A stretch of 64,000 nucleotides of DNA, from IMG/VR virus record IMGVR_UViG_3300025601_000007. One strand, written 5' to 3'. This DNA is from a virus. Lineage: Duplodnaviria; Caudoviricetes. This document shows positions 516 to 28,048 of the stretch, in pieces. Each line of letters opens with the position of its first letter. The stretch's first letter is position 1. The notes under the pieces are model-generated. The model saw only the letters and a program-made list of their open reading frames with translations. It was not told where the DNA came from and searched no databases. The translations under genes were made by a program, and so were the position numbers.

Positions 516-824
516 TTACGCTTTAACCAGCCCTTTTTGAATCCAAGCGTCCCAAGTCTCTGCGTCTTGACCTTGAATCCCAGGGTTGTCTTGATAGATT
601 TGGTTTTTATAAAAAAATCCAATAAACCTCCTTTGGGTTTTGGTTGTCCTTTTAACTTTAACTTTCATCACAGCGTCGCTGAGGGTCTGGTCTAAATCCA
701 GACCCTCGTCGACTGTGTACTTATGCTCTCTGTAGATTGGCTTCGCGTGAAGCCAAAATTGATAGTTCCACCTGGTGTTACACCAGTAGAATCTTAGTTT
801 TGAATGTTTCCACCATTTTACCAT
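516..824 (-). CDS. Hypothetical protein
   Basis: 102-aa ORF tightly packed in the minus-strand run. Confidence 0.55.
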   Translation of the reverse strand: MVKWWKHSKLRFYWCNTRWNYQFWLHAKPIYREHKYTVDEGLDLDQTLSDAVMKVKVKRTTKTQRRFIGFFYKNQIYQDNPGIQGQDAETWDAWIQKGLVKA

Positions 825-1060
825 TGCAAAAATGTAAGTTCAATCTTGCTAGTGATTATAAGCAACAAAAACACAGACAGGGAAGACAGGGCGCTAAAAA
901 TCATGAAGAACACCAAGTGAAACCTGATTCTCTCAAAAGGAGTGATTTCTCCGAAGCCATCTGTTTTTCTTATTCCATTCCAATCTTTAAAGATGTAATT
1001 GAAACAAAATCCACATGCAGCTAGGAAAAGTATTAAAATGATTTTCAGGACCCACGCCAT
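818..1060 (-). CDS. Small membrane protein (two hydrophobic segments)
   Basis: VLKIILILFLAACGFCF and FHLVFFMIFSALSSLSVFLLLII; start overlaps the upstream stop. Confidence 0.7.
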   Translation of the reverse strand: MAWVLKIILILFLAACGFCFNYIFKDWNGIRKTDGFGEITPFERIRFHLVFFMIFSALSSLSVFLLLIITSKIELTFLQW

Positions 1061-1377
1061 TATTTTCCGTCTTCTTCCTCCGTTCCGTCTGAATTATCTT
1101 CCAGTTCATCTTCTGAGCCGTCTTCATGGGAATGTTGTTCTTGTTCTTGTTTTTGTTGAGCTTTCGCTGTGTCTTCTTGAATTTGAGTCATAAACCTAAC
1201 AGCAACTTCTTGAGAGCGCTCCAGTCGAACAATTTGTTCAATAAAAGCTTTTACTTCTCTAATTGGGTCTCTAGTTAAATCGGAGTTATTCAGAGTTCTG
1301 CTAAGTCTGTCGTAGTGTAAGACTCTCTCAGCTTCACAGTCGTCATATACCTGACGTAGGATTCTGATATTATCCAT
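1060..1377 (-). CDS. Hypothetical protein with acidic C-terminal tail
   Basis: 105 aa, ends EDGSEDELEDNSDGTEEEDGK. Confidence 0.7.
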   Translation of the reverse strand: MDNIRILRQVYDDCEAERVLHYDRLSRTLNNSDLTRDPIREVKAFIEQIVRLERSQEVAVRFMTQIQEDTAKAQQKQEQEQHSHEDGSEDELEDNSDGTEEEDGK

Positions 1378-1927
1378 TCTTCTTGGCTTCTTTAATGGCT
1401 TCCATCGCCTGTACGGTTGCCAGGTCTACAATCTCTGAACTCTGCATCACCTCGTTTGCTCCGAAATAATTGACATTGTTTAAAAACTCACGAACATCTG
1501 TTTGATTCTTTTTAACTTTACGCTGCTGCTGTAAGTCAACTTCAACATTAACTCCACAAAGAAGCTTATCTAGTTGAATCACTTTATGCTTACTGTCAAG
1601 TCCTGCCCACACTGGTGCAAATACGCAAATCACATAGTCGTATCTGTCGTCTACAACTTGTTCGATTTCACTTCGAGCGATAATGTATCCCGCTACAAAC
1701 TTGCCCCCGTCTTTCTTTGGTTTGTTTGAGTAAAGAAACTTAATTCGGCTGATTTCAATGTCTTGGTTGTGGGCACATCTTCTTTTAATGAAAGCTGAAA
1801 TTGCATGCATTTCATCATCTGCATCCATGTAAGGAACTTCGTAAGGAATGTCTGGTGTAATTGCGGTGTTATCTAATTTAGAAAAAACCATGTCTGAAAA
1901 ACTCTGTGTTGACTCTGTTGTGTCCAT
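1370..1927 (-). CDS. Phage metallopeptidase-like protein with degenerate HExxH; probable start ATG 1927 (ORF open to 1975)
   Basis: RIKFLY..KPKKDGGK..AG...YDYVICVFAPVW..L......LDKLLCG resembles the putative phage metallopeptidase family, with DKLLC where xHELxH is expected; a TGATTATATT motif at 1958-1967 lies between the two possible starts. Confidence 0.6.
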   Translation of the reverse strand: MDTTESTQSFSDMVFSKLDNTAITPDIPYEVPYMDADDEMHAISAFIKRRCAHNQDIEISRIKFLYSNKPKKDGGKFVAGYIIARSEIEQVVDDRYDYVICVFAPVWAGLDSKHKVIQLDKLLCGVNVEVDLQQQRKVKKNQTDVREFLNNVNYFGANEVMQSSEIVDLATVQAMEAIKEAKKNG

Positions 1928-1930
1928 GTT

Positions 1931-1954
1931 GTTGTGTTGTGTTGTGTTGTGTTG
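1931..1954. repeat. Pentanucleotide microsatellite (GTTGT) x4 plus a partial unit
   Basis: gttgtgttgtgttgtgttgtgttg read directly. Confidence 0.95.
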
Positions 1955-1989
1955 CACAATATAATCAAACATCAATTCATAACAAAGGA

Positions 1990-4203
1990 CTACCGTTTAT
2001 TAAAGGTTAAGCTTTTAGTTAAAGGACTTAGTGTGGTGTCTGACTTTAAATCGAAAACCAAAAGATTCCCTTCGCTGTCATAACCAGTGTTTTTGTAATG
2101 TGTATCAGTTAACCCAATCTCATCGCACTTATTTTTAAGTTCATAGAAATCTTTTTTATCTATTTTTCCCGTGTTTAATTTTTGAGTTATAACGACATAG
2201 AAATTGCCTATATCTATTGGGTAGTCTCTTAGGTATAAACCATTTCCCTGAGGGTTATTAATTTTGTAAACAGCCATTATTTTAGCCACAAATGGAAGAG
2301 GATTTTGGTGAAAGTAATTACTGGTTTCCGCTTCTATTTTGCTCATTGTGACTTTACACATAAAGCCTTGACCTTCGCTTATCCATCCATCGTTTGTACG
2401 GCGAGTTTTTTTTAGAGTTATGCCTAAACTTGCCTCAATTGATTCAATTAATTCTTCTATGCGAATATTTTCACCTCTATAGTTGCTTAGGCTTTTGCTT
2501 GAAACATTTTCGTCTATGCTTGACCAAAAAGCTTTTGCATCGTCGCTTCTACCTTCTTTTGAAATTTGAAACCCATTGTCAGATGAAATTTTTTGGACAA
2601 CCTTAATTAGCAGGGTATATATCCCTTGTCTTCGGTATTTTTGATTTACTTCAGCTCCTCCTATTCTTAATGTGTTTGATTTAGAGTCAATATTAAAACC
2701 AACTCTCCCAACGGGTGTTAAATTCTCAGTTGAGGCTTTGATAGTTAAAGAACGATGTAAACCTGGTGTCTTAAATATTGAGATTGCTATTGGAGTCCCT
2801 TTTATAGTTGTCGCAATATATCCTATACCATTATATTTATCAATGATATTGTTTTCTTCTTTATATCTTTTCTCAGGAGGAATGTATTTATAATTGTATT
2901 TAGTCTTCAACAAATCGATATACTTCTGATTTTTTTCAGCCTTTGGATTCAAGTCGACAACATCAGTGTACATCTGAATGGCTTCGTCAGACCCAGTTTG
3001 TTCCGACAAGCTCTCAGCCTCGATTATTTTAATCTGCTCAGATTCAAATACAACAATCTCATCACCTGCTATTATCGAATCGTGCCCTTCTTGTTTTATC
3101 GCGTTAGTCCAATCATCTGAATTTTGGCCCAAGTCGGTAAGGTAGTCCATTCTTACGTCTTCTTCGAAGTCGTAAATCAGTTTGGGCTCAATCCCAATCT
3201 CTCGAAGTTCTTCTACTGAGAAATCGTTTACTCCTCTTCCGTATCTGGTGCCCTGAGTTTCTTCGTACCAGTCAGACACAATGTTTAGGTCTAAGCCTGT
3301 TTCTCCTTCGTATGTGTCAGGGTGCTTAGTTTTAAACTCTTCCCACCCACGGCTATGGTCTTTGTTTTTAGTGATAGATGCAAGAAGATTAAAAGCGACA
3401 ATGTCTTTTGTCTTTAATTGCAGAAGCAAGTCTTTAAGGTCAATAGCTACAACTGTTTTTTTTGGGAGATTTAATTTATATTTTTCTCCAATACGCACAA
3501 GGCTGCTTTCGTTGACATAAAAAGGGTTTTTCATATCCAAGCGTACAGAAAGAACTTCACCAGTTCCTCCGAAGAATTCTGAAAAGCTTCTGGCTTTTGA
3601 TTCTGTATCTGTAAAATAAAATCCCTTACCAAAATGGCCATCATTCCCACTGGTGGAGCCTATTTGTGATTTATCAAAAGAAGCAAACTTTCCCTTAGGG
3701 CCTACGCCATGATAATAAATGTTTTGGGTAGTATTTTCTTGAAGATACGACTTAATGTTTCCACTTCTAAAGAAGTCTACATCGAATGGATTAAGGCCTC
3801 TCTCTGGCTCGTGCCAAGGTGCTTTTGTTTTATGAATTTCGTCTTTGGTATCCACACCAACTATTCCTACATACCTTCCAAAAGAGCTAGAGCCTGGGGT
3901 TGGGTCAAAATATTCTTTTTTATCGGCATCATAAACCCACCAGTGTTCAATGGGGAAATCGTTTTCAAAAGCGTATCCCTTTACGGGATACAGATTTTCA
4001 TTAGGCCTGTTGTGAATGTAATGAAAGACATTAGTTTCACACTTATTTGACTTTGATTTATCACACTTGATTGACGTAACCTCTCCAGAGCTAAGGCTAA
4101 TACCATTTTTACTTTTGGATATAGCAACAATGTCTGGATGATTATGATAATCCTCTAAGACTTCTCTGATAAGTTTTCGTATGGAGTTTATTTCTGAAGC
4201 CAT
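1990..4203 (-). CDS. Polyvalent effector protein: transglutaminase/papain-like + ADP-ribosyltransferase + GNAT + kinase-like domains
   Basis: CETN..HWW..DPT (aa 55-102); YYHG..FGKGFYFT..KNP..GHDSII..EIVVF..QIK (aa 161-394); VNQKYRRQGIYT..RSDDAKAFW (aa ~485-562); CKVT..DTHYKN.GY..LVFD (aa ~590-720). Confidence 0.8.
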   Translation of the reverse strand: MASEINSIRKLIREVLEDYHNHPDIVAISKSKNGISLSSGEVTSIKCDKSKSNKCETNVFHYIHNRPNENLYPVKGYAFENDFPIEHWWVYDADKKEYFDPTPGSSSFGRYVGIVGVDTKDEIHKTKAPWHEPERGLNPFDVDFFRSGNIKSYLQENTTQNIYYHGVGPKGKFASFDKSQIGSTSGNDGHFGKGFYFTDTESKARSFSEFFGGTGEVLSVRLDMKNPFYVNESSLVRIGEKYKLNLPKKTVVAIDLKDLLLQLKTKDIVAFNLLASITKNKDHSRGWEEFKTKHPDTYEGETGLDLNIVSDWYEETQGTRYGRGVNDFSVEELREIGIEPKLIYDFEEDVRMDYLTDLGQNSDDWTNAIKQEGHDSIIAGDEIVVFESEQIKIIEAESLSEQTGSDEAIQMYTDVVDLNPKAEKNQKYIDLLKTKYNYKYIPPEKRYKEENNIIDKYNGIGYIATTIKGTPIAISIFKTPGLHRSLTIKASTENLTPVGRVGFNIDSKSNTLRIGGAEVNQKYRRQGIYTLLIKVVQKISSDNGFQISKEGRSDDAKAFWSSIDENVSSKSLSNYRGENIRIEELIESIEASLGITLKKTRRTNDGWISEGQGFMCKVTMSKIEAETSNYFHQNPLPFVAKIMAVYKINNPQGNGLYLRDYPIDIGNFYVVITQKLNTGKIDKKDFYELKNKCDEIGLTDTHYKNTGYDSEGNLLVFDLKSDTTLSPLTKSLTFNKR

Positions 4204-4775
4204 CTTTGATAGTCTTGCTTTGTTGCTTGAACAAGCGCTTTAATGTATTGGTCTTGGTTTAATTTTGCCTGAGTAACTCTATGATTACCATCATAGAGCA
4301 TAAACAAGTCTTGGTCAGAATCGTAATGGACCTCGATGGGTTTCGCATCAAATAAATCAACGCCCTTCTGGAATTCATATTCGTTTCCTTCGTCATCTGA
4401 CCAGCTTCCAGGAGTTGGGTCCAAGCCGTCTATTTTATCCACGGGTATCATCATTAAAAGCCCGTGCTCCAGATGATAATTTCCACCTAGCTTTACCATC
4501 TCAGCCTGAGTAAATACTTGTCGACTGAGAAGTTTGGAGTTGAGATTTGAGGGTGAACGTTTAGCAGGAGCTTGGTCCAAACCAAAGTGCGCCACCAATG
4601 CAGGAATATTAAATGCTAAAAACCGAATAAGGTCATTTTTGGAATCAGGCGAGTACAGACGTTTTTCACCTCTATAAAGATTTAGGTTGTCATCCAATGA
4701 AAAATCAGATAACTCAATCTCTAGAAGCGCTTTTCGTATAGCACGTCGAACCTCATTTACGGTGCCTTGAGCCAT
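4188..4775 (-). CDS. ParB/Sulfiredoxin-like domain protein with N-terminal VRRAIRKALLE tag
   Basis: C-terminal KPIEVH....LFMLYDGNHRVTQAKL...IKALV. Confidence 0.75.
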   Translation of the reverse strand: MAQGTVNEVRRAIRKALLEIELSDFSLDDNLNLYRGEKRLYSPDSKNDLIRFLAFNIPALVAHFGLDQAPAKRSPSNLNSKLLSRQVFTQAEMVKLGGNYHLEHGLLMMIPVDKIDGLDPTPGSWSDDEGNEYEFQKGVDLFDAKPIEVHYDSDQDLFMLYDGNHRVTQAKLNQDQYIKALVQATKQDYQRWLQK

Positions 4776-4785
4776 TAAGCCTTAG

Positions 4786-6561
4786 TTAAGAGTTTAAATT
4801 GTCTTTTTCACTTATTTTTTTATCGTACTGCTCTTCAGAGATGATGTTAGACAATAATTGTCGTCTCAGTTGTTTGTCTGGAAATCTTACGAAGTCAACT
4901 TTTTCTTCAACTTGAGCATCTTCAGAGAGGAGGTTTTCCATTCTCTCTTCAAACTGCTCCTCTGTAATTATCTTTGACAAGAGCTGCAATCTTAGCGTTT
5001 CTTGAATATTCTTCTTTTTGTTCATTATTTTTTTGTTTTGTGTTGCGTTCTTTGCCTTAGTCCAAACCGAGTGGTTTCTTGAGTTATTGGTTTTCATCAT
5101 GGTTGCTGACATTGAGCCCATACCATCGTTCATCCCATATCCACCACCACCAACTCTTCGCATATGCTCTTTAGTTCGCATGTTACTGTCGTGAGTTCCA
5201 GCCAAAGCTCTATCTACCCACATTTTAGCGGCATTACCGCCATGTAAATCCCACTCTGGACTTCCAGCTTGATTGTTGTCAAAGAATGCTTTTAGACGCT
5301 TCATTTGAGCATGCGTTTGAATTCCTCCGTCCGCAAGGTCTTGGGCTTTTCTTACTCCACTACCCTCGTTACCTCCATTAGCAGTTTGGCCGCCACTAGA
5401 GATAGCGCGACGAACAGTGCTTTTTACGTTTTCTGGCGGAGAAAAAGACTTATTATTATTGAAGCCAAAACGCTCCAGCAAAGCTTCTCTGATGAAATTA
5501 CGAATTTCACCAATACTTCTATCATGAAGGTCAAACGCCTTTAGTTTACCATTTTTATCGTAGCCCATATTTTCTGGACGCATATCAGAGGCTTCAATGC
5601 CTAATGCGCGAAATGCTCTATTGATATCATCTAGTTGGTCTGCGAATTCTTTCACATCGTCTGGGGCGTCTGTTTCGTCCCAGTCCATTGAGTGTGTATA
5701 CTGAATAGGCAACCCTTGCTCTTCCATGTAGCTGCTGACTTGATAGTAGTAATCCTCTATTTCAGAGTCAATTTCTAACTCCTCCATTAAAATCCACTTT
5801 TCTCCTTCAACAAGCTCGGCAGCATAAATATCTGCAAACACTTTAAATACAGGAGAGGTGTCTCCGATAAGCCGCTTAGCTATATCAAACTCGCTTACAG
5901 CCGTTGTTTTTTTTAAAACTCGGTCTCCATTGACATAATATGCCTCACCAAAATCTCCCTTACCCGCCCAACTGATTGAGTCGGGGTCGATGTTGTTTTT
6001 TGCATAAAAATCCTGTTGAGTCATACTGTACTCTGTTGTATTTTCGGTTAAAGACATAACTTGGTCATAGGTTTCTAATTTTACGAGCTTAGGTTTCGCT
6101 GAATGCTTTAATGCTATTTCATTTTCCCAAAACTGCGTGCTTCTCTCCCATAAAGAAACTGCCGTGTCAATGTCATCACTGCTAATCTTTGCAGTTAGCC
6201 GATAGAGAATATCTCCTCTTAATTTTACCTCCCTAGGGCTAATGTGTGTAAGCATGTCCCAAAATGCACGCTCTTCATGCTGTTTAGGATTTGAGTACCA
6301 GCTGATTCCTAAATTGGTTTCATTTAACTTCTCCCCTGGCTTCATTGCAATAAGGCGATAAATTAATGGATTTGAGGGGGTGTCACCAAACCCATGAGGC
6401 CAAAGGCTTTTTATAGACTGATGAAAATCTTCAACAGCACATTCTTTTGCCTCATCCAAAGAATTAGCCTCATCCCAACACCCGCTAGATTCGTAAACCC
6501 CAGTCAAACCCCACTCTGCTACTTCAAGTAGTTCATCATATGATAAGTTCTCGAATCTCAT
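4786..6561 (-). CDS. Polyvalent protein: R-S-E-type ART-like domain + protein-kinase-like domain + phage head-associated PPxxV domain + duplicated C-terminal motif
   Basis: IYR(69)..GIS(87)W..ENE(146-148); GKGDFG, VLKK, DMRPEN, AFD; SPPENV..GSGVRKAQDLADG..KRLKAFF..W.LHGG; LRxQLLSxIIxEEQ twice. Confidence 0.75.
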   Translation of the reverse strand: MRFENLSYDELLEVAEWGLTGVYESSGCWDEANSLDEAKECAVEDFHQSIKSLWPHGFGDTPSNPLIYRLIAMKPGEKLNETNLGISWYSNPKQHEERAFWDMLTHISPREVKLRGDILYRLTAKISSDDIDTAVSLWERSTQFWENEIALKHSAKPKLVKLETYDQVMSLTENTTEYSMTQQDFYAKNNIDPDSISWAGKGDFGEAYYVNGDRVLKKTTAVSEFDIAKRLIGDTSPVFKVFADIYAAELVEGEKWILMEELEIDSEIEDYYYQVSSYMEEQGLPIQYTHSMDWDETDAPDDVKEFADQLDDINRAFRALGIEASDMRPENMGYDKNGKLKAFDLHDRSIGEIRNFIREALLERFGFNNNKSFSPPENVKSTVRRAISSGGQTANGGNEGSGVRKAQDLADGGIQTHAQMKRLKAFFDNNQAGSPEWDLHGGNAAKMWVDRALAGTHDSNMRTKEHMRRVGGGGYGMNDGMGSMSATMMKTNNSRNHSVWTKAKNATQNKKIMNKKKNIQETLRLQLLSKIITEEQFEERMENLLSEDAQVEEKVDFVRFPDKQLRRQLLSNIISEEQYDKKISEKDNLNS

Positions 6562-10614: not shown

Positions 10615-10630
10615 TGTAACTTAATTTTAT

Positions 10631-10920
10631 ATGATTTAGCGTAAAACTCACTCATCGCTTTTTAGCGTGGGTGAGATGTAAGCGTTTTTTTTATATATTT
10701 ACAAATAAGTTCTTTTTCGTTGTTTGCATAAAATCATAAGCGAAACAAAATATTAAGCTGTGGGTTGGGGACCAACTTCGCAGGATAAACAAAAAGGCGG
10801 TGAGGCGTTGCCATTGGGCAAGTCTACGAAACGCTGTAAATTCTGAATATGTATCTGCTCTTTGCATTTATATTTTTTTTAGAAGCCCTTCCATCAGCTT
10901 GCTGTGGATGGGTAGTTCAC
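10631..10920 (+). mobile_element. Non-autonomous IS200/IS605-type (PATE-like) cassette, 290 bp, divergent copy
   Basis: Preceded by TTTAT; left-end hairpin CTCACTCA-TCGCT-TTTT-AGCG-TGGGTGAG; right end GAAG-CCCTTCCATCAGC-TT-GCTGTGGATGGG-TAG-TTCAC; no tnpA or tnpB ORF. Confidence 0.85.
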
Positions 10921-10943
10921 AGAATATAATCAGTTACTTCAAT

Positions 10944-10983
10944 AAAACAAAAAAGAGACTTAAATTAGTCTCTTTTTTGTTTT
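10944..10983. terminator. Bidirectional intrinsic terminator
   Basis: AAAACAAAAAAGAGACT-TAAATT-AGTCTCTTTTTTGTTTT, perfect 17-bp inverted repeat. Confidence 0.85.
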
Positions 10984-10998
10984 ATATTTTATTGGTGT

Positions 10999-11939
10999 TT
11001 AGAAGCCTGGCTGTTCAAAGTTGATTCCAGCAATCTCATCAGGCGCTGCTCCTGCGTTTGGTGCTAAATCTGTGAGATTTGACTCTAAAGCAGCATTAAC
11101 GCCACGTGTGAATCCTTTTCCAATGTCTATCAGAACAGATGGATTTGAACGCTCTTCCCACTCAAGCGTGTCAAGGTATTCTTTAAAAGCGCTCTCGCCT
11201 TCTTGGCTGGCATGTAAAGCCTGTTCACCTGCTCCAAGTGTGCCTTCACTTAATCTTTTTTTTTAGACTCCATTAGAGTCGCAACTTTCTCAGCCTGGAT
11301 TTTAGTCCATTCTAGCAATTCATTTCTATTCTTGAAGGTAAACCCTTCTTTCGGCATCTCAATTGCTTTAGCTATAGCTTCTGGAACTGCTTCATTTTGT
11401 GCATCTTCGTGAACATCTGCTCCGTTCATCCCGACATTTGTTGCCTGGTCTGAGCTTAGATTTCCTTTTGCACCGACAAAAGTTTTTGTCCCTTCGTCAA
11501 CTTCCTTGTCCATAGAGTTCATTTTTGCTTCGCCATCTTTATCAAATGGTTCACCTTTCTCTTTGGTAGGGTTTGATTTTTTTGAATCAAAGTTTGCAGT
11601 TTTTTGACCAGCTGTGGCCGATTGGTCACTTGAAAGGTCTCCACCTGCGTTAACTTTAACCGCAGTAGACGCCGCTCCGTCACAGCCAGCCTCTTTGTCC
11701 ATTGTATTCATGGCAACGTTCATAGGGTCTTTGGCAGCAACTTTCGCTGATTTAGTTTCCTCGTTTCCACCAATGTTCTTAACTTTGGCTTCTGGATTTG
11801 CGCTTGCTCCACCAACCATCTTGTTCATAACAACATCAGTTGGATTGCCTGCTGCTTTTATCTCGTCAGCCTCGATTAGCCTTTGAGCTTGTCCGTGGAT
11901 GTATCTTACGAGGTCTTCTTTTCTGATTTGCTTAGACAT
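10999..11939 (-). CDS. Low-complexity probable head/scaffold-type protein; 229-aa ORF (11250-11939) extended by 85 aa through a frame change at an A9 run
   Basis: ...TCT AAA AAA AAA GAT TAA; one extra A reads RLSEGTLGAGEQALHASQEG...NFEQPGF* to 10999, ending just before the terminator; internal LSSDQ and MNxMDKE repeats. Confidence 0.7.
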
Positions 11940-19369: not shown

Positions 19370-19386
19370 GTTAAATTTGTTTTTAT

Positions 19387-19742
19387 AAGACGGAGCGTAA
19401 AACCCATTCATCGCGCAGCGTGGATGGGATGAAAGCGACCTTATTCAGCAAATATAACAATTGTTTTTGATAAAGACTTGATGTTTTTGGTTTAAACGCA
19501 TATATTTGTTATAACAAACTTCGATAACCAAGAGTTTGTTGTTCTTTGACGTGGTATAAGGTTGCTCTGCAAAATCTTGCAGTTTGCATAAAACCAAAAA
19601 GTAAAACTGAATTAAAAACATTCACGTCTGGTTGTGGGATGCAGTCGGACGATAATCAAAAACGGGATGAGGCGTTGCTATTAGGTGAGTCTACGACCCC
19701 CGAAGCCCAACCCATCGGCTCTGCCGTGGGTGGGTAGTTCAC
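19387..19742 (+). mobile_element. Non-autonomous IS200/IS605-type cassette, 356 bp (copy A), retaining the TnpB 3' end/omegaRNA
   Basis: Follows TTTAT; left-end hairpin CCCATTCA..TGGATGGG; TATATTTG at 19501; ends ...EAQPIGSAVGG* coding remnant, right-end hairpin CCCAACCCATCGGC-TCT-GCCGTGGGTGGG, then TTCAC; identical to 27611-27966. Confidence 0.9.
19501..19508 (+). promoter_or_regulatory. Bacteroidota-type -7 box TATATTTG inside cassette A
   Basis: TAnnTTTG with TTG ending 20 nt upstream (19478-19480). Confidence 0.6.
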
Positions 19743-20302
19743 TATACTCCGAAATCGCCTCCCTGGCCACTTCTCGCTCCAGATACAAAATCTTTAAAGC
19801 TAGCCCCACCTTTGGCGGCTTGCCTATTAAATGTGTTAAAGTCCATTGGTTGAGCTAATTGTTGCAGGTCTTTGTAAAAAATTGCAACATCAGTAATGCC
19901 ATGTCTTTTAGCGATTTCAGCAGAATCTTGACGAAGCGTTTGTAGCAAGCCTTTCGAAATCTCAACATAATCTGCTGTGCGAGCCTTATAGGCTTGAGTT
20001 AATTGAGCGAGTTCTTGAGATTTTATTTGCTTGTATTCTTTTTTTGCTTTTTCATACTTGCCCATTCCGAAAATTTCTTCGATATCTTGCTCTTGAGTTA
20101 TACCAAGCGTGGCAGCAGTGTGTTCGTCAAGGTTTTGTCCTTTATAAACATCTCGCATTTCCTGCTCTACCTTTGCAAGCTTGTTTTCAAGAAGCTTTAC
20201 TTTGCTGTCAGCAGCACTTTCTTGAATCTTATTAAATTTAAGCTTCATCGCTTCCTCTTTAATAAGAGCATTGAGTTTTTCTTTAGAAATTTTAAGTTTC
20301 AT
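19742..20302 (-). CDS. Hypothetical protein, probable head-associated
   Basis: MKLKISKEKLNALIKEEAMKL tag followed by IQE; late motif upstream. Confidence 0.7.
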   Translation of the reverse strand: MKLKISKEKLNALIKEEAMKLKFNKIQESAADSKVKLLENKLAKVEQEMRDVYKGQNLDEHTAATLGITQEQDIEEIFGMGKYEKAKKEYKQIKSQELAQLTQAYKARTADYVEISKGLLQTLRQDSAEIAKRHGITDVAIFYKDLQQLAQPMDFNTFNRQAAKGGASFKDFVSGARSGQGGDFGV

Positions 20303-20336
20303 CGTTGTGTTCCGTTTGGTTGTGTAAGCTGTGCAA

Positions 20337-20344
20337 ATAAATAG
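20337..20344 (-). promoter_or_regulatory. Putative late-promoter motif CTATTTAT
   Basis: ATAAATAG upstream of 20302. Confidence 0.55.
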
Positions 20345-20358
20345 AAGTAAAAACCCAA

Positions 20359-23300
20359 TTAATCCGCCATTCTATTCATTAGTCTTGAAATTATGCTCTC
20401 ATCTCCTCGTGAGACATCTCGCTTAAAATCTTTGTTGTCCAAAACTTTACTCACAACCTGGTTTTTCTCTTTAAGTAACTCATAGATGTCGATGTCAATT
20501 GAGTCTTCACAAAGAAAAGTCATAATCTGGACGTTATCGTGTGTCGTCGTTGCTCTGTGAATCCTGTCTTCGGCCTGACCCATGTCTGCAGGTGTCCATG
20601 CTTGCCCAATAAAAATTAGTTTATTAGCGGATGTCAACGTGATACCAACACCTGCAGAGCCAAACGTCCCGCCGAACACATTTATGTTTTTCTTTTCTTG
20701 AAAACTGGTGACAGACTCATGCTTTTGGATAGCATTCATTTGCCCTGTGTGCAAAACACATCTATCACCCCACAGTTCTTTTATAGCATTTCCCGTGTCG
20801 ATGTAATCAAAGAATATTACAACTTTGTCTCCAGACTCAATGATGTCGTCAATAAAATCCCTCGCCTTTTCAAGTTTGAATGTCTCCGTGCATTTTTTTA
20901 GTAAGTGAACTTTCGCAAGGAAGCTCATTTCTTTTTCATCTTCTTTTCCTTCCTCGTTAATGAATTTGATTACCTCTTTCTCGGCTTTGTTGTATTCTCG
21001 CTTGGTTTTTATGTCCATTTCCAACACAACTTCGCTATATGTTTTAGGTGGCAGTTGGGACAAAACATCTTTTTTGAGTCGCCTTAGATAAAACGGAGAT
21101 ATTCTTTGGTATAGCTCTTCTAAATATGATGCCCCATCGTACTTCCACCCAAAACTATCTTCGAACCCAGCTCCATAACGCACGCCGAAGTCATGGAAAG
21201 AGTTCCACATGTCCTTATCGAGCAAATTGAGAGGCATAAACAGTTCTATCGGCCTAGATTTGATGGCGGTACCAGAAAGGAGCACTTTCTTGCTTACAGA
21301 CTCTCTAAATGCCATGTTTATTATTTTTGTCCAATCTGTAGTTCTTTCTTTTATCCTATGAAACTCATCAATGATAATCAAATCATAATCGTCAGGGTCC
21401 AGAACTTCCCCATCTTTATCAATGATGTATTGGAGACCTTTTATTCTGCTTTTGAAAGAGTTAGTGTTTGCACACTGAGGGCAGTCGTCTGTAATCTTTT
21501 TCTTGAGGCTGGTGATTTTGCAGTCGCAGTTTCTATTTCCTCCGCTTGAGAAAAGAGTTCCTGTGCACCTGTGGTTGTATTCCAGTTTGATAAACGTTTG
21601 GATTGATTCAAAGTTTATTATATGGAATAGAGACTCCTCTTTAGTGTTGTTTGTCTTCCCGCTTCTTTTGGTTGGGTTGTATTTATATACAAACGATTTC
21701 TCGTGAGAGAACTTCTCAATCTCCGACTTCCAGTTGAGCTTTAGCGATGCAGGGCATATAACAAGAGTTTTTAAGTTATGCTTGATTGCGTATGCGAATG
21801 CTGGAGCTGTATTGTGAGTTACTATGTAATCGTTCACAACAAATGTGCTATCATCAGAATCAACACTTATACATTGTTGAGGGAGCACTCCAATATACTC
21901 AATACTCTCTATATATCTAGACGTGTGATTGGTTGCTACTATTTTGTGTTCTTTTATTTTATCGTCAAGATGAAATGGTGCCCAGTTGAGTTTCACATTT
22001 ACTCGGTACTCAACCCCTTTTTGTTCATGTGTCCTGTCATAAGAAAACACTTTTGCTATGCCTCCCAATGACTGTGTTAATTCTTTTACATCTTCCGCCA
22101 GTTGTTTTGATACTGTGTGATAGTGAGTTCTACTGTTAGAACAACTCCCATCAGTGTCCATAAGCCCTTTTAATAGCTCTGTTCGCTGCTCAGTGGAGCC
22201 GTTTCTGTACTCTTGTGGAATAAATTTGTAATGGGATTTCACATTTAATTTCAAGCGTCTTATCTCGTCGGTGTATCTGTTTTTTTGTCCTAAAGTATCT
22301 GATATTGAGTATCTACTGCAAGAGTGTTGAGTGGACTCAGATTTTTTTATTTTAGCCATCTTCATCCCAGGTAATAAATTCGACTCAATTAAACTGGCTG
22401 TTGATTCTTGGAAATCAGGTATAGACATCGTAGGGGTGGGCGATGAAATAGCTCCATCTCCGATTAAAGAGCCTAAAATAAAAGGATGAATCACATATTT
22501 CTTCTCAGGGAAATTCGCTGGCTGGATAGTCGGGATTTCCCATTTCAAAACAGGCTTTCTACCGCTGTCAATTCTTTTTTTATTTGTCTTATACGATAGT
22601 CCAGATTTTATTAACTCAGCAATAGACTTAACTGTCCACCCTATGCCTTTTTGTCTTCTGTTAGCATCTCTTACTGTCCATAAATGCTCTTCGCAACATT
22701 TTACTTTTGAGCCGTCGTTAAAGGTGACTTCGTATGCATCAAGAAGCCCTTGAGGATATACTCCAGTGACTTTGTGAAATTCGCCATCAGAACCTAACAC
22801 ACTTGAGTCGAGTGATATATCACCCATTCGTATCCATCCTTTATCGGTGCAAATAGGGGTTTCTAAAAACAAACTCTTACCAACACCAGGTTCATCGCCA
22901 AGCATAATTACGCCTTCGTTGATTTCCATGAATTTAACTGCCTGCTTTTGGTAGTCATACGGCTCTATCTTCATAAAACTGTAATCTTCATCGTCAACTT
23001 GTATGCTGTCTGCCTTTGCTTTTAAGGCTTCTCGGATTCTGTTTTGGCGTTCCAAATAAAGCTGTCGAAGTTGCCCCATTTCTGCTTTAGTGAAATTGTC
23101 TAAAGCAAATGGATAACTATTGTCCAGGAGGAATGAGATGACATTTCCCATCTGGACCTCTCTAACTTGAGTGACCCACTGAGCTTTTACGGTTCCATCT
23201 AATTGCAGCACTTCCTCTTTGAACAGCTTCTTGTGCTCGCGAGGGAATGATTTGATATAAGATTGAAGTCGTTTGTCGAATTCGAAAGTCAGGTTGTAAT

Positions 23301-23376
23301 TAGTCCTGAGCTTTTTTATATTCACCGTCGGCCTGTAGCTGGCTTTCTTTTTTGGCTTTCCTTTTTCTTTGCTCAT
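20359..23376 (-). CDS. SNF2/HARP-like SF2 helicase with intein
   Basis: PYDYQ, GDEPGVGK/T, VICPASLKLNW, IIDEFH, LSGTAI, QAEDRIHR. Confidence 0.93.
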   Translation of the reverse strand: MSKEKGKPKKKASYRPTVNIKKLRTNYNLTFEFDKRLQSYIKSFPREHKKLFKEEVLQLDGTVKAQWVTQVREVQMGNVISFLLDNSYPFALDNFTKAEMGQLRQLYLERQNRIREALKAKADSIQVDDEDYSFMKIEPYDYQKQAVKFMEINEGVIMLGDEPGVGKSLFLETPICTDKGWIRMGDISLDSSVLGSDGEFHKVTGVYPQGLLDAYEVTFNDGSKVKCCEEHLWTVRDANRRQKGIGWTVKSIAELIKSGLSYKTNKKRIDSGRKPVLKWEIPTIQPANFPEKKYVIHPFILGSLIGDGAISSPTPTMSIPDFQESTASLIESNLLPGMKMAKIKKSESTQHSCSRYSISDTLGQKNRYTDEIRRLKLNVKSHYKFIPQEYRNGSTEQRTELLKGLMDTDGSCSNSRTHYHTVSKQLAEDVKELTQSLGGIAKVFSYDRTHEQKGVEYRVNVKLNWAPFHLDDKIKEHKIVATNHTSRYIESIEYIGVLPQQCISVDSDDSTFVVNDYIVTHNTAPAFAYAIKHNLKTLVICPASLKLNWKSEIEKFSHEKSFVYKYNPTKRSGKTNNTKEESLFHIINFESIQTFIKLEYNHRCTGTLFSSGGNRNCDCKITSLKKKITDDCPQCANTNSFKSRIKGLQYIIDKDGEVLDPDDYDLIIIDEFHRIKERTTDWTKIINMAFRESVSKKVLLSGTAIKSRPIELFMPLNLLDKDMWNSFHDFGVRYGAGFEDSFGWKYDGASYLEELYQRISPFYLRRLKKDVLSQLPPKTYSEVVLEMDIKTKREYNKAEKEVIKFINEEGKEDEKEMSFLAKVHLLKKCTETFKLEKARDFIDDIIESGDKVVIFFDYIDTGNAIKELWGDRCVLHTGQMNAIQKHESVTSFQEKKNINVFGGTFGSAGVGITLTSANKLIFIGQAWTPADMGQAEDRIHRATTTHDNVQIMTFLCEDSIDIDIYELLKEKNQVVSKVLDNKDFKRDVSRGDESIISRLMNRMAD
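21811..22875 (-). mobile_element. Intein (355 aa) with LAGLIDADG endonuclease, inserted in Walker A
   Basis: Begins S-LFLETPI after GK; ILGSLIGDG and LLKGLMDTDG; ends YIVTHN followed by Thr+1. Confidence 0.92.
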
Positions 23377-23773
23377 TTAACTCCTTTTGCTTTATCATGG
23401 CGTCTTTCAATCTGCCTACTCTCTCAGTAGGGTTAGAATTAGCTTTTTTTAAATTGTCGATTCTAGCTTTATATCGCTTATCGGCATTGTCCATTCGTTC
23501 TTTTTCTTTCTCTAACTTTTTTTCCAAACAGCTTGGGACAGACTCTTTACCTCTAAGTTCTAAACTCATTTTTTGACGCATAAAGTCAGCCAGAAACTTT
23601 AATTCCATTGACTGCTTACGCAAGTGCTTCTTAGAAGCCTTTTTTCCTAAAAGGCCTTTTTCCGCATGAGCTTCCATAGACATGAGGGTTTCAAGGAGTT
23701 CATAAAAGATGTCTAGCTCACTGAACTCCTTCATCCTCTCCAGCTCCGCTAGAGTCCAGGTCGGTTCTTTCAT
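23300..23773 (-). CDS. Basic protein, possibly Hc1-like histone-H1-type DNA-binding protein
   Basis: FYELLETL..ME..AEKG..GKKASKKHLRKQSMELK..A..MR pattern; K/R-rich tail. Confidence 0.45.
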   Translation of the reverse strand: MKEPTWTLAELERMKEFSELDIFYELLETLMSMEAHAEKGLLGKKASKKHLRKQSMELKFLADFMRQKMSLELRGKESVPSCLEKKLEKEKERMDNADKRYKARIDNLKKANSNPTERVGRLKDAMIKQKELNEQRKRKAKKESQLQADGEYKKAQD

Positions 23774-24149
23774 ACAGTTTTGATATTGATTGTAAGTCGT
23801 CGCCAGTTAATTCTCTAATAGCTGCTTGTTGTTCGTGATGACGCTCACGGATTACATCAGACACAGTCTTCCCGTCTTTGGAGGCCTGGAAAAGGTCTAC
23901 TGCGAAACGGTCGTCTGTATATAGGTCTTTGTCGATTCGATAGAACACTTTAGCTGTCATGGTCGGCAGCTTGGCCCCTTCTTTCTCCTCTAGTTTAGTA
24001 TAGCAAAAGCCAACCAAGTCCTCCTCGTTCTTGAGTTGGGTTAAGGGCTGGCTTATTGGTGTTAGTACACGAGCGGTTGAATCTCCGTCTATCGCTTGCA
24101 GCTCTTTACGGATGTATTTCTCTATGTCTTTTGAATTATAATATGGCAT
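23718..24149 (-). CDS. Hypothetical protein
   Basis: 143-aa ORF. Confidence 0.65.
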   Translation of the reverse strand: MPYYNSKDIEKYIRKELQAIDGDSTARVLTPISQPLTQLKNEEDLVGFCYTKLEEKEGAKLPTMTAKVFYRIDKDLYTDDRFAVDLFQASKDGKTVSDVIRERHHEQQAAIRELTGDDLQSISKLYERTDLDSSGAGEDEGVQ

Positions 24150-24184
24150 AGAGAATAATGAACAATTATTCTCGAAAAATCAAA

Positions 24185-24781
24185 TTACTTCTTAGAGCGA
24201 AATACTATTTTTGGGATATAAAGGGTAGCTCTTTTTTTAAAACTTTTCTTTTTTAACTTATCCATGTCGATTTTGAATGCCTTGTTAGCATTTTTCAGCA
24301 CCTCTCGCTCCTTAGCTAAATCTTTGAACATGTTTTCCAACGATGTAATTTGAGAAGGAGTTTCGAATTCTTTATTTGGTCTTGGCTTCTGGATACAAGC
24401 AAAATCCTGTGTACTTTTTTTGTCTCTGAGTTTGTGGAAAATGTAGTTCTTCCCAGCTCTCTCTGCTTTCCAAATAGCAAACTTATTCTTCAGGTTTCTC
24501 ACCCATTTGTATTTGTTTTTACAAGGGTATATAGTAACAAACGCACCTGTGCCTTCTCCGTAGATACGGATGTAGTCGTTTTCTTTGATGCGTTTGGATG
24601 TTCCCCCGTGGTATTGATTACGAATATCCTGAGTGGATTTCATCCTCTCGTTGTAATTCGGCAGTTCCGATTTAACTCTAGCAGCCAAGCTGTTTAGTTC
24701 ATCTTGCTCTTGCTCTAAGTTAATTCCAACTTCGCTGAATAACTTATGGATATTTTTTAATTCTGATTCTTTTTCTTTCAA
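24185..24781 (-). CDS. Hypothetical protein
   Basis: 198 aa, TTG start, late motif at 24798. Confidence 0.65.
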   Translation of the reverse strand: MKEKESELKNIHKLFSEVGINLEQEQDELNSLAARVKSELPNYNERMKSTQDIRNQYHGGTSKRIKENDYIRIYGEGTGAFVTIYPCKNKYKWVRNLKNKFAIWKAERAGKNYIFHKLRDKKSTQDFACIQKPRPNKEFETPSQITSLENMFKDLAKEREVLKNANKAFKIDMDKLKKKSFKKRATLYIPKIVFRSKK

Positions 24782-24797
24782 AATGCTTATTTTTGGT

Positions 24798-24805
24798 ATA
24801 AATAG
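24798..24805 (-). promoter_or_regulatory. Putative late-promoter motif CTATTTAT
   Basis: ATAAATAG upstream of 24781. Confidence 0.55.
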
Positions 24806-24827
24806 ACAGTGATTCCTTGAATGGGAA

Positions 24828-25793
24828 TTATTTTAACTTCCCGTGTTCTTTCAAAAGTGTCTTGTCTTGGCCTGGGAATCCGCTACATAACGGGTGTTTA
24901 CCGCCTTTGTAGGAACAAAAACGACAAGAGTTTTTGTCATCTATCAAATAGTTCCCGCCAAGGTCAACCGTTGGGTTTCCAGCGAAATCTAAAACGAATT
25001 TAGCTTTTTGAAAGTCTTGTTTGATGTGGATTTTGTTGAGTGACTCCGACATTGCCTCTATTGCCTGGCGAATTTCTCCTAGCGATGAAGTCATTGGAAC
25101 ATCAACAATTTCTCCGAAGCCCATGTCTGGCTTCTTCTTGTTTTTCAGTCTGTTCAAAACAACATACTTGGTATCTATCTGAGTCAAATCCACGTTGTTC
25201 TTTCTGGCCCAGAAATACTTATACAATTTCATTTGCATAAGGAAGGTTTTGTTTTTGTTCTTCCAGTACATATTCCACGGCTCAGAGGACGTCTTCCAAT
25301 CGATTATCACAATTCGACCAGTCTTTCTGTTTTTGACCACAAAATCAATAAACCCTTTGAAGTAAAAAATTCCATAAATGTGTTCGTAAAGAGGCTCCTC
25401 CACCGAGACTATCTCGTAATCTCGCATAAATGCTTCCACATCAATGGTCCGAAGCATGTTCTCGCCTTGGTCGGTGAACGCATCAAGGTCAGCGAACTCA
25501 GGGGTGTCTTTCATGTTCTCAATCATGTCCTTCCTGAAAGTGAGCTTGAAATGCTCTACTCGCTTGTCGGTGCTATACTCGTTCTCAAACGTGCGTTCAA
25601 TCGATTCGTGAATGGCGTTTCCGAAGTACAAGTGAATTGATGGAGGCTGTTGGTCCAGACCTAAGTGTTTCTCAATCAAGTGCTTGTGTCCGCATTCTCG
25701 GAATAATGAGAATTCTGAAAAAGAAATGTGCTTGTATCCCTTTTGTTTACCCTCGGCCATTACGCGAAACATATCTTCTTTGCCTTTGCTCAT
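24828..25793 (-). CDS. PD-(D/E)XK nuclease (RecB/Cas4-like)
   Basis: ISFSEFSLFRECGHK, FGNAIH, FKGFIDFV..IIDWKTS, QMKLY, CRFCSY..C. Confidence 0.88.
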   Translation of the reverse strand: MSKGKEDMFRVMAEGKQKGYKHISFSEFSLFRECGHKHLIEKHLGLDQQPPSIHLYFGNAIHESIERTFENEYSTDKRVEHFKLTFRKDMIENMKDTPEFADLDAFTDQGENMLRTIDVEAFMRDYEIVSVEEPLYEHIYGIFYFKGFIDFVVKNRKTGRIVIIDWKTSSEPWNMYWKNKNKTFLMQMKLYKYFWARKNNVDLTQIDTKYVVLNRLKNKKKPDMGFGEIVDVPMTSSLGEIRQAIEAMSESLNKIHIKQDFQKAKFVLDFAGNPTVDLGGNYLIDDKNSCRFCSYKGGKHPLCSGFPGQDKTLLKEHGKLK

Positions 25794-25834
25794 AATACTG
25801 CTGTGTTGTGTCCTTAGCGAATATAATCAATTTT

Positions 25835-25848
25835 TAGATTATAATCTA
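25835..25848. promoter_or_regulatory. Perfect 14-bp palindrome in a divergent intergenic region (candidate operator)
   Basis: TAGATTA-TAATCTA. Confidence 0.45.
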
Positions 25849-25862
25849 GGCTATTTAGGTAT

Positions 25863-26477
25863 ATGGGACACGTATCCTCAATTTATCTTCATAAACTAAA
25901 CAGACTTGCTGGAATTGTTTCAGAGGCACTTAACACTGCCACTGCACCTGACCCTTTTGCGAGGTCCAACGAGCGTGTTCCTTTTAATGTCGACCTGATG
26001 CAGCAAGCAATCGAACAAGGTCTTGTGGTTGGTCTTCTGTTTCAATCCAACAACACCAAGTACAAGATGCCTGTAGCCAAGTACCGCAACATCATGCCTG
26101 TGGCTATGGGGTATGATAAAGACGGTAGATTAGTTTTTCGTGGGGTCCACGTTAAAGGTCAGAGTGAAAAGAAGGCTCGACAGACTGGCGTTAGAAGCGC
26201 AGAGGCATCGAACGAATGGAGGCTGTTTTTGGCATCAAATGTAAAAAGCATGTTCTTTACTGGGGGTTTCTTTTCCCAGGTGCCAATTGGAGGGTTTAAA
26301 TCAAATGACAGTGACATTACGCGTCAGATAGTATCGTTTGATGCGGGGCGAGCAAAAGCTTACCAAGACGAATATAACAAGATGTCGCAACCGCAGTCCG
26401 ACTACAGTCCTGAGTTGAACGAGAAGTCTAGAGTTATAAAGAGTTTGTTTAAGAAAGATTATCGAAGGAAGTGGTAA
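25863..26477 (+). CDS. WYL-like domain protein with N-terminal RLAGI tag
   Basis: AIEQGLVVGLLF..YRNIMPVAMG..LVFRG..WRLFLASNV; CTATTTAG at 25851. Confidence 0.7.
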   Translation: MGHVSSIYLHKLNRLAGIVSEALNTATAPDPFARSNERVPFNVDLMQQAIEQGLVVGLLFQSNNTKYKMPVAKYRNIMPVAMGYDKDGRLVFRGVHVKGQSEKKARQTGVRSAEASNEWRLFLASNVKSMFFTGGFFSQVPIGGFKSNDSDITRQIVSFDAGRAKAYQDEYNKMSQPQSDYSPELNEKSRVIKSLFKKDYRRKW

Positions 26478-26580
26478 TTAAAGAGCATTATTAGCGTTTG
26501 GTCTGTATCGAGTAAAATGGTATCGGTTTTGCTATGTACCACTTCAAACCTTGTGTTTGTGTGATGATGATATCATTTGG

Positions 26581-26829
26581 TTACTTCTGAATTTCGTCTT
26601 TCAGTTGTTCAAGTCTTTCAGTTGTCACTATTATTTTTCTTGGCGAGTTGTTAATTGCTCTTTCAAGTGATTGAAATAGTTCTTTTTTGCTTTTAAACAA
26701 GTGTTCTATTGCTTCATAAGGTGTTAATCCCCTAATCATAGACTCAAAGATACTTCTAAATTCTGCATCAAATTGAAACTCTTCAAAGAACTCTTCTGTA
26801 AACTGTGATTTTAATTCAAATTGGTTCAT
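26581..26829 (-). CDS. Hypothetical protein
   Basis: 82-aa ORF. Confidence 0.65.
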   Translation of the reverse strand: MNQFELKSQFTEEFFEEFQFDAEFRSIFESMIRGLTPYEAIEHLFKSKKELFQSLERAINNSPRKIIVTTERLEQLKDEIQK

Positions 26830-26889
26830 AATAAACGCTTTATGGTACAGGTTGAAAATAAAGACCTACTAGGTCTTATTGGTTATTAA

Positions 26890-27135
26890 TTAAGAAGCAT
26901 CTATCTTTTTTATAATAGTAAGTAATTCGTCTTTGTAATGCTGCTCATTCTCATAGATTTCTTCGTGATTAATAGTTCCTTGTGCCCACATTTCTTTGCA
27001 CAATTTTAACCCAAGTAAAACACCTTCTATTCTTGATATTTCAATTATTTCTTCAACTGATTTAGGATAAACAACATCTAATCCCCAAGTGTCTTGATGC
27101 TTTGCTTTTTCGTAGTACTCTTTTGCTTTTGACAT
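26890..27135 (-). CDS. Hypothetical protein
   Basis: 81-aa ORF. Confidence 0.65.
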   Translation of the reverse strand: MSKAKEYYEKAKHQDTWGLDVVYPKSVEEIIEISRIEGVLLGLKLCKEMWAQGTINHEEIYENEQHYKDELLTIIKKIDAS

Positions 27136-27180
27136 AATAAATTTACATAGTGAAGTATATACATAGCTAACCCAGCCTGT

Positions 27181-27537
27181 TTATTCTTCGGTGATGGATA
27201 TATCACCTTTCTCGCTTATTGTGTACCCATATTCAGTAGTTGTATCATCAAATAACTTGTCAACATCTATCTCTGGGTCATGATGAACCATTTCCTCTTC
27301 ATTGTCAGTTATGAACTTTGTCTGAAACACAACAACAAGTTTATTCATTACTTCCGAAATACTATTTTCACCGTAACGAGTTAATCCGTGTATGATACCA
27401 TTTTTTACTTTGGTTAGAATTACATTTTCACCTTTCTTCAACCAAAACTCTCCGTCTCTTTCCTCTACCTTAATATCTGTTTTCTTTTCAACGTCTTCTA
27501 ATGGAAAGCCTTTTTGAAACATAATGTCTAAACTCAT
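27181..27537 (-). CDS. Hypothetical protein
   Basis: 118-aa ORF. Confidence 0.65.
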   Translation of the reverse strand: MSLDIMFQKGFPLEDVEKKTDIKVEERDGEFWLKKGENVILTKVKNGIIHGLTRYGENSISEVMNKLVVVFQTKFITDNEEEMVHHDPEIDVDKLFDDTTTEYGYTISEKGDISITEE

Positions 27538-27610
27538 AATTCTGTATTTTTAACAGCACCAAAGCATTTGAAACCAACTGATTCTATCTACCTCGCAATG
27601 CATTTTTTAT

Positions 27611-27966
27611 AAGACGGAGCGTAAAACCCATTCATCGCGCAGCGTGGATGGGATGAAAGCGACCTTATTCAGCAAATATAACAATTGTTTTTGATAAAGA
27701 CTTGATGTTTTTGGTTTAAACGCATATATTTGTTATAACAAACTTCGATAACCAAGAGTTTGTTGTTCTTTGACGTGGTATAAGGTTGCTCTGCAAAATC
27801 TTGCAGTTTGCATAAAACCAAAAAGTAAAACTGAATTAAAAACATTCACGTCTGGTTGTGGGATGCAGTCGGACGATAATCAAAAACGGGATGAGGCGTT
27901 GCTATTAGGTGAGTCTACGACCCCCGAAGCCCAACCCATCGGCTCTGCCGTGGGTGGGTAGTTCAC
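27611..27966 (+). mobile_element. Non-autonomous IS200/IS605-type cassette, 356 bp (copy B), identical to copy A
   Basis: Follows TTTAT (27606-27610), ends TTCAC; same sequence as 19387-19742 with different flanks. Confidence 0.9.
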
Positions 27967-28048
27967 ACTATAATATTTTCCAAAAATTCAATTCAGTATT
28001 ATCCAAGATTTGCCCGTGCCGCAAAAAAAACAGCGCATAGCATCATAG

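Follow-up and report, generated by a model that had tools for sequence, protein, structure and literature searches.

Mini-elements derived from tnpB and carrying a predicted omegaRNA scaffold in the DNA of a salt-lake phage

Three short elements devoid of protein genes lie in a 64,000-nucleotide (nt) stretch of the phage record IMGVR_UViG_3300025601_000007, referred to here at its full length of 64 kb as the window. Their sequences indicate that they are very probably omegaRNA-bearing, non-autonomous members of the IS200/IS605 group of insertion sequences (IS), that is, palindrome-associated transposable elements (PATEs), which arose from tnpB-only transposons. Two of them, A1 (19387-19742) and A2 (27611-27966), are 356 bp long and 100% identical over that length, and the third, B (10631-10920), is a diverged 290-bp element of the same family. 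A1 is located between two convergent genes, and A2 occupies an intergenic gap within a run of minus-strand genes. An initial annotation, made from the letters of the window, had described two identical elements and a diverged one with common end motifs, end hairpins bearing compensatory changes between the two types, and distinct right flanks; alignment and folding bear out each of these points, the flanks listed there included.

Derivation of the elements from tnpB

All three copies directly follow TTTAT, carry GCGTAAAAC starting 8 nt inside the element and have TAGTTCAC at the right end, which finishes in TTCAC. A core pattern, GAGGCGTTGC-N9-AGTCTACGA, occurs exactly three times in the window and in none of 100 shuffles. 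The elements contain short stop-to-stop frames only, and the sequences to their right are mutually unrelated.

The origin of the elements became apparent from a pattern scan for the conserved core, which fetched 57 loci (contigs and loci are identified below by L numbers). In L021, L022, L023, L025 and L031, a gene of approximately 400 amino acids (aa) ends in the same 3' segment that is found in the window. The genes of L023 and L025, which were the ones compared with Pfam, contain the HTH_OrfB_IS605, OrfB_IS605 and Cas12f1-like TNB domains and are therefore bona fide tnpB genes. The last ~133-179 nt of the window elements match the 3' end of such metagenomic tnpB genes, and within the predicted scaffold of A1 there is a degenerate remnant of the last ~35 tnpB codons, recognizable in the window copies as a tail of ~25 aa that aligns with residues ~360-391 of 395-aa TnpB proteins. 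This tail lies downstream of the RuvC-III motif, and the rest of TnpB is gone, in agreement with the earlier statement that almost all of tnpB had been deleted. Given the scaffold shared with real tnpB genes and the remnant of the coding tail, we conclude that these are internal-deletion derivatives of tnpB-only IS200/IS605 elements. Each would have kept the left end of the parent transposon, a short non-coding stretch with a promoter-like match, the whole omegaRNA scaffold and the right end. L025 itself carries three different tnpB genes within 6 kb (655-6225), the scaffold family being associated with the third one only.

That the elements are intergenic and rich in hairpins might bring to mind regulatory repeats of the phage, such as terminators or signals for replication or packaging, whose likeness to IS ends would be superficial, but homology of the 3' part to real tnpB gene ends, coding remnant included, together with dozens of related copies in bacterial metagenome-assembled genomes (MAGs) and related phages without the insertions, makes this reading barely credible.

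The ends of the elements have the architecture expected of this transposon group. There are bulged subterminal hairpins at both ends, and terminal inverted repeats are absent. When folded as single-stranded DNA, all four ends tested formed stems of 11-12 pairs with one unpaired T. In A1, the left-end hairpin (19403-19428) is preceded by AAAA, presumably the left DNA guide for TTAT, and the right-end hairpin (19705-19735) has GAAG on its 5' side and TAGTTCAC on its 3' side. The stems of types A and B differ by paired changes, as seen for instance in the left-end hairpin of B (10647-10675). In IS608, the pairs formed by the guide and the cleavage site are AAAG/TTAC and GAAT/TCAA. As read from the sequence, the corresponding pairs here, AAAA/TTAT on the left and GAAG/TCAC on the right, fit the IS608 guide rule, with the fourth position co-varying. 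TTTAT, the target and transposon-adjacent motif (TAM), is located at 19382-19386 for A1 and at 10626-10630 for B, and it directly adjoins the left end of five independent copies (A1, A2, B and those in L028 and L036), the insertion having occurred with no target duplication. All three window copies are on the plus strand and the surrounding genes are mostly on the minus strand. Insertion of IS200/IS605 elements is strand-specific, being directed to the lagging-strand template, and the common orientation of the copies fits this mode of insertion.

Conservation of the omegaRNA scaffold

The initial annotation had equated the 3' segment of the elements with the omegaRNA scaffold, and comparison with the tnpB-bearing loci agrees with this assignment. 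We aligned 17 distinct members, which comprise A, B, copies from Chitinophagaceae MAGs and tnpB-bearing copies. The consensus structure consists of 24 pairs that form a long 5' stem, a closing stem and an inner hairpin. Loss of the scaffold pairs had been named beforehand as one of the outcomes that would refute the proposal, and this outcome did not occur: in the named structure 96.3% of the paired cells can pair across the 17 members, compared with 29-44% in slid controls; the covariation score is 0.373 versus at most 0.078 in controls, and nine of the 24 pairs change on both sides. A covariance model, R1, has exactly three full-length matches in the window, namely the predicted scaffolds of A1 (19610-19742, 135 bits), A2 (27834-27966, 135 bits) and B (10742-10920, 118.5 bits), all on the plus strand and with scores within the range of those of tnpB-bearing copies. 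In B, the scaffold stems and the right-end hairpin (10885-10913) are set apart by an insertion of 46 nt. No Rfam family matched, at gathering or at permissive thresholds.

The same picture emerges when the ten distinct protein-less copies are considered alone, with 96.7% of cells paired and ten pairs changed on both sides, in an alignment that was fitted to the model. In the B lineage, substitutions within the region of the scaffold helices fall in loops and linkers, a pattern that rests on small numbers and excludes the right-end hairpin, which is absent from the model; in the B copy of L039, this hairpin has one stem change. The 3' deletion breakpoints of several independent derivatives lie just upstream of the scaffold. 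The family searches were seeded on the scaffold and cannot show that PATEs lacking it are rarer. Taken at the level of sequence and predicted fold, the retention of a complete TnpB omegaRNA scaffold in the elements is well supported.

Mobility and empty sites

In metagenome contigs, copies of type A that are 99.7-100% identical to those in the window are found at other positions and next to other right flanks. Those in L028 and L036 follow TTTAT, and the contigs of L029 and L057 are cut off before the left junction. Relatives of type B are present in L039, L042 and L043. The suggestion that related phages should be inspected for empty sites proved productive, with insertions absent from the positions corresponding to all three elements. 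At the A1 site, phages whose neighbouring protein is 65-78% identical have an uninterrupted intergenic gap of 23-27 nt; in a relative, the two genes on either side of B are separated by only 96 nt; and at the A2 site the relative L155 has no room for an element. Among contigs from several samples that encode a 99%-identical neighbour protein, each of the eight that were examined either carries A1 or ends within it. The insertion point of A1 coincides exactly with the stop codon of the minus-strand gene 19742-20302, where the last base of the element supplies the G of a TAG stop (19742-19744); the model of the empty site reads TAA, so that the end of the reading frame is unchanged.

The contigs of four runs join the element ends to many other flanks. 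In run X18, word-depth in contigs, a rough measure, is ~530 over the right-end part of the element versus 6-8 for the phage. These two observations suggest that many more copies of the element lie in other, more abundant genomes of the community.

Some of the other copies have noteworthy surroundings. In L028, the type A copy adjoins genes for a reverse transcriptase and a protein with a C-type-lectin fold (Lcl_C) (2352-3593 and 4404-5570), a pair that looks like a diversity-generating retroelement, and in L029 the copy lies next to a class I aminoacyl-tRNA synthetase (Glu/Gln; 2175-3719), the contig also encoding an HNH nuclease. Both contigs look phage-like and may represent other parts of the same or related giant phages. 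Two further contigs, L152 and L154, are >99.7% identical to the window to the right of B, and on the left they continue into the flank of L039 (window 10629-10661), which itself has yet another right flank beyond its B copy. B is thus a breakpoint between alternative arrangements, which could have arisen by recombination between B copies or else be chimeras created at the repeat during assembly. The B copies of L039 and L154 are without the 26 nt between two AGCG repeats and have lost the 5' arm of the left-end hairpin, and their left flank ends in TCCAT, not TTTAT; with that arm gone, this B copy is probably immobile.

Source of TnpA and TnpB

The initial annotation had called for a search for tnpA and tnpB genes with matching ends, and the outcome differs between the phage and bacterial sequences: none was detected in the window, and two Chitinophagaceae MAGs yielded related ends together with fragments of both enzymes. 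These MAGs contain at least 40 and at least 12 matches to the element ends or scaffold, including right-end hairpins that are 100% identical over 44 nt and scaffolds that are 85-90% identical to that of type A. The same two MAGs hold fragments of TnpB and of a Y1 TnpA, and hence a host of the Chitinophagaceae-like kind may supply both enzymes. The tnpB copies in the MAGs are mostly fragments at contig ends or internally deleted, and they form a continuum of decay in which the N-terminal part only, internal pieces or the tail only is left. Five left ends were followed in one of the MAGs, G001, and none led to an intact tnpB; intact tnpB members of the family were encountered solely in unrelated metagenome contigs. 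R1 matched two of 151 genomes sampled from the family to which G001 is assigned (Chitinophagaceae by its label). The element family is thus patchily distributed, and the survey does not allow a host to be named.

Expression, guides and competing interpretations

If the elements are transcribed, the guide of each omegaRNA would be taken from the sequence immediately to the right, that is, 19743-19762 for A1, where it overlaps the 3' end of the minus-strand gene 19742-20302, 27967-27986 for A2, and 10921-10943 for B, all on the plus strand. In the case of B, this flank amounts to 23 nt and is followed by a perfect 17-bp hairpin (10944-10982) bordered by runs of A and T. The hairpin is probably the native bidirectional terminator of the locus, and it would stop any transcript of B soon after the guide-length stretch. 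The retention of a promoter-like motif, as claimed initially, holds in part. Type A has a putative promoter, TTGATG-17-TATATT (19478-19508 in A1, plus strand), and B carries TATATTTA in place of the TATATTTG that this match overlaps. The Bacteroidota -7 motif TAnnTTTG shows no enrichment in the window, where it was found 42 and 31 times versus 43 and 24 expected.

The interpretation that we moderately favour is that these are phage-borne, tnpB-deleted PATEs with an omegaRNA scaffold that are moved, and potentially used, in trans. The copies would have entered intergenic DNA of a very large salt-lake phage on the 3' side of TTTAT, moved as single-stranded circles by a Y1 TnpA made elsewhere, most likely by IS copies in a Bacteroidota host of the Chitinophagaceae-like kind. 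Each transcribed copy would yield an omegaRNA with its own right flank as the guide. Together with a compatible TnpB provided in trans, this RNA would cut only the element-free allele, in which TTTAT is followed by the flank. In the occupied allele, TTCAC takes the place of the TAM, which would protect this allele from cleavage. A genome copy that is occupied would then be the template for repair and bring the element back, so that the beneficiary of such RNA-guided restoration would be the element and not the phage. Guide use by the elements is plausible on these grounds; that an omegaRNA is made and used is a possibility to which we give slightly less than even weight. Of the original suggestion that the cassettes provide their own guides to a TnpB acting in trans, the scaffolds and the distinct flanks that would serve as guides stand, and the window offers neither a tnpB nor a tnpA to go with them.

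Several observations weigh against this scenario and should be considered together. Neither tnpB nor tnpA was detected in the window, the tnpA test being weak as it relied on partial queries, and the MAGs of candidate hosts have no intact tnpB with a closely matching scaffold. In the intact tnpB loci of the family (L021-L031), the right-end hairpin is a different one and the terminal bases are TTCAT. The empty-site joints 19386^19743 and 27610^27967 were not seen in contigs of the four runs, which is weak evidence as contigs drop rare variants. The promoter is a consensus match only, overlapping TATATTTG at 19501-19508, and there are no RNA runs among the runs that contain the stretch. Finally, the conservation of the scaffold could be inherited from tnpB-bearing ancestors.

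Much of this would equally be expected if the elements were inert passengers, recent hitch-hikers thrown by TnpA into replicating phage DNA, with a scaffold that is neither expressed nor loaded into TnpB during infection and that is intact only since the deletion derivative is young or was copied from tnpB-bearing parents. The near-identity of the type A copies carries no information on selection, the MAGs display a continuum of tnpB decay products, and a copy of B found outside the window is missing one arm of the left-end hairpin. What this explanation accounts for less readily is that A and B have diverged greatly, yet every helix has been kept through paired changes, and that the protein-less copies alone show the same helix conservation. 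The location of the B-lineage substitutions, albeit in small numbers, and the independent breakpoints just upstream of the scaffold point in the same direction, as do published standalone omegaRNAs that are reported to work in trans. We therefore regard passive carriage as somewhat unlikely, though the most serious competitor of the trans-use model.

A more specific elaboration is that the mini-elements borrow TnpB, from IS copies of the host or from an unseen part of the phage, and cut element-free phages of the same or related kinds at TTTAT plus flank, thus acting as a homing gene drive or as an inter-phage weapon; this we hold to be improbable. The cutting of empty-site alleles of relatives had been put forward initially, and it found no counterpart in the data, with no such allele in the contigs of the four runs and the nearest candidates, L124 and L125, in which 14 nt match the A1 guide, having TTTCT, one base different, in the position of the TAM.

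Least probable among the functional alternatives, and quite remote in our estimation, is a guide set that serves the phage, in which dispersed CRISPR-like guides would act with a borrowed nuclease or a nuclease-dead TnpB, either to cut relatives that infect the same cell or to regulate genes. In its favour, the A1 guide falls within the conserved 3' end of a gene, its first 14 nt match the same site in L124 and L125, the insertion is present in every near-identical contig that reaches the A1 site in several samples, and in VIPR, another system, orphan guide RNAs of phages hijack effectors in trans. Against this, the guides are insertion flanks by construction and match no other sequence of the window; the matching site in L124 and L125 has TTTCT rather than TTTAT, and other relatives have mismatches in both TAM and seed; and the window has no visible gene for TnpB or for a TldR-like protein. 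The initial proposal of such a set, used by the phage, is unsupported. No target with TAM plus guide was found beyond chance-like matches. In a search of three Chitinophagaceae genomes for TAM plus guide, A1 had no target. The single match for A2 (3 mismatches) and the four for B (2-3 mismatches) were rejected as chance, being AT-rich, with mismatches in TAM or seed and no similarity in the surrounding sequence.

Relation to described systems

Gene-less omegaRNA mini-elements have already been described, and the present case is a clear if rather ordinary instance of them. OmegaRNAs that require TnpB in trans are frequently encoded by PATEs, and a model for retention and homing has been given (Meers 2023, PMC10055086). 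The PATE-like elements of Geobacillus stearothermophilus reported there share with ours the hairpin ends, the lack of an open reading frame and the TAM-adjacent insertion, and differ in sequence family, TAM (here TTTAT) and hosts, as well as in the phage setting found here. Standalone omegaRNAs that are mobilised with neither effector nor transposase have been reported to work in trans with compatible effectors (Altae-Tran 2021, as summarised in PMC10691335). These loci resemble the window elements in having a mobilised scaffold at a transposon end, no nuclease or transposase and a guide derived from the flank; they reside in the same cellular genome as effector-bearing loci, whereas ours are in a giant phage, with no effector located.

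With IS608 and ISDra2, the elements have in common bulged subterminal hairpins, a tetranucleotide guide 5' of each hairpin that matches the cleavage site, insertion 3' of a short motif with no duplication, and an omegaRNA that overlaps the 3' end of tnpB and the right end. The target of those transposons is TTAC or TTGAT, unlike TTTAT here, and the window elements have no tnpA, no tnpB and no Rfam family for the scaffold. The solo vrRNAs of VIPR-null phages, which are thought to use an effector in trans (bioRxiv 10.64898/2026.10.15.759431), are a functional analogue only: in both cases a phage carries a guide RNA and no effector, but the VIPR RNA and protein are unrelated and the VIPR guides have demonstrated non-self targets, while the guides here match their own insertion site only.

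The value of the case lies in its being a natural and well-documented example of effector-less TnpB guide-RNA elements that proliferate in a giant environmental phage. The ends and the TAM are defined, a covariance model has been built, and the corresponding sites of relatives are empty. Should the RNAs be in use, phage genomes would serve as vehicle and arena alike for RNA-guided homing, with the nuclease encoded in another genome. Such homing in trans is a testable idea that extends published ones rather than opening a new one.

Phage context

The window appears to come from a very large, novel phage. Its proteins include an SNF2 helicase, a PD-(D/E)XK nuclease, an SbcCD-like protein, an amidase, ART-containing polyvalent proteins and a DNA methylase. 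Neither the element nor the surrounding 10-kb stretch has a match in the GenBank phage collection, and no match to two patterns of the scaffold core was found in IMG/VR. DNA of the window is present in 20 salt-lake metagenome runs. A protein that is 100% identical to the product of the window gene 11253-11939 belongs to a cluster whose longest contig measures 446,956 nt, and the phage genome may therefore be approximately 0.45 Mb in size. The SNF2-family helicase (1005 aa; 20359-23376, minus strand) has a LAGLIDADG domain at residues ~397-458, inside the helicase core. Its orthologues in related phages are 622-650 aa long and have no LAGLIDADG domain, and thus the insert is, by this comparison of sequences, likely an intein or an inserted homing endonuclease.

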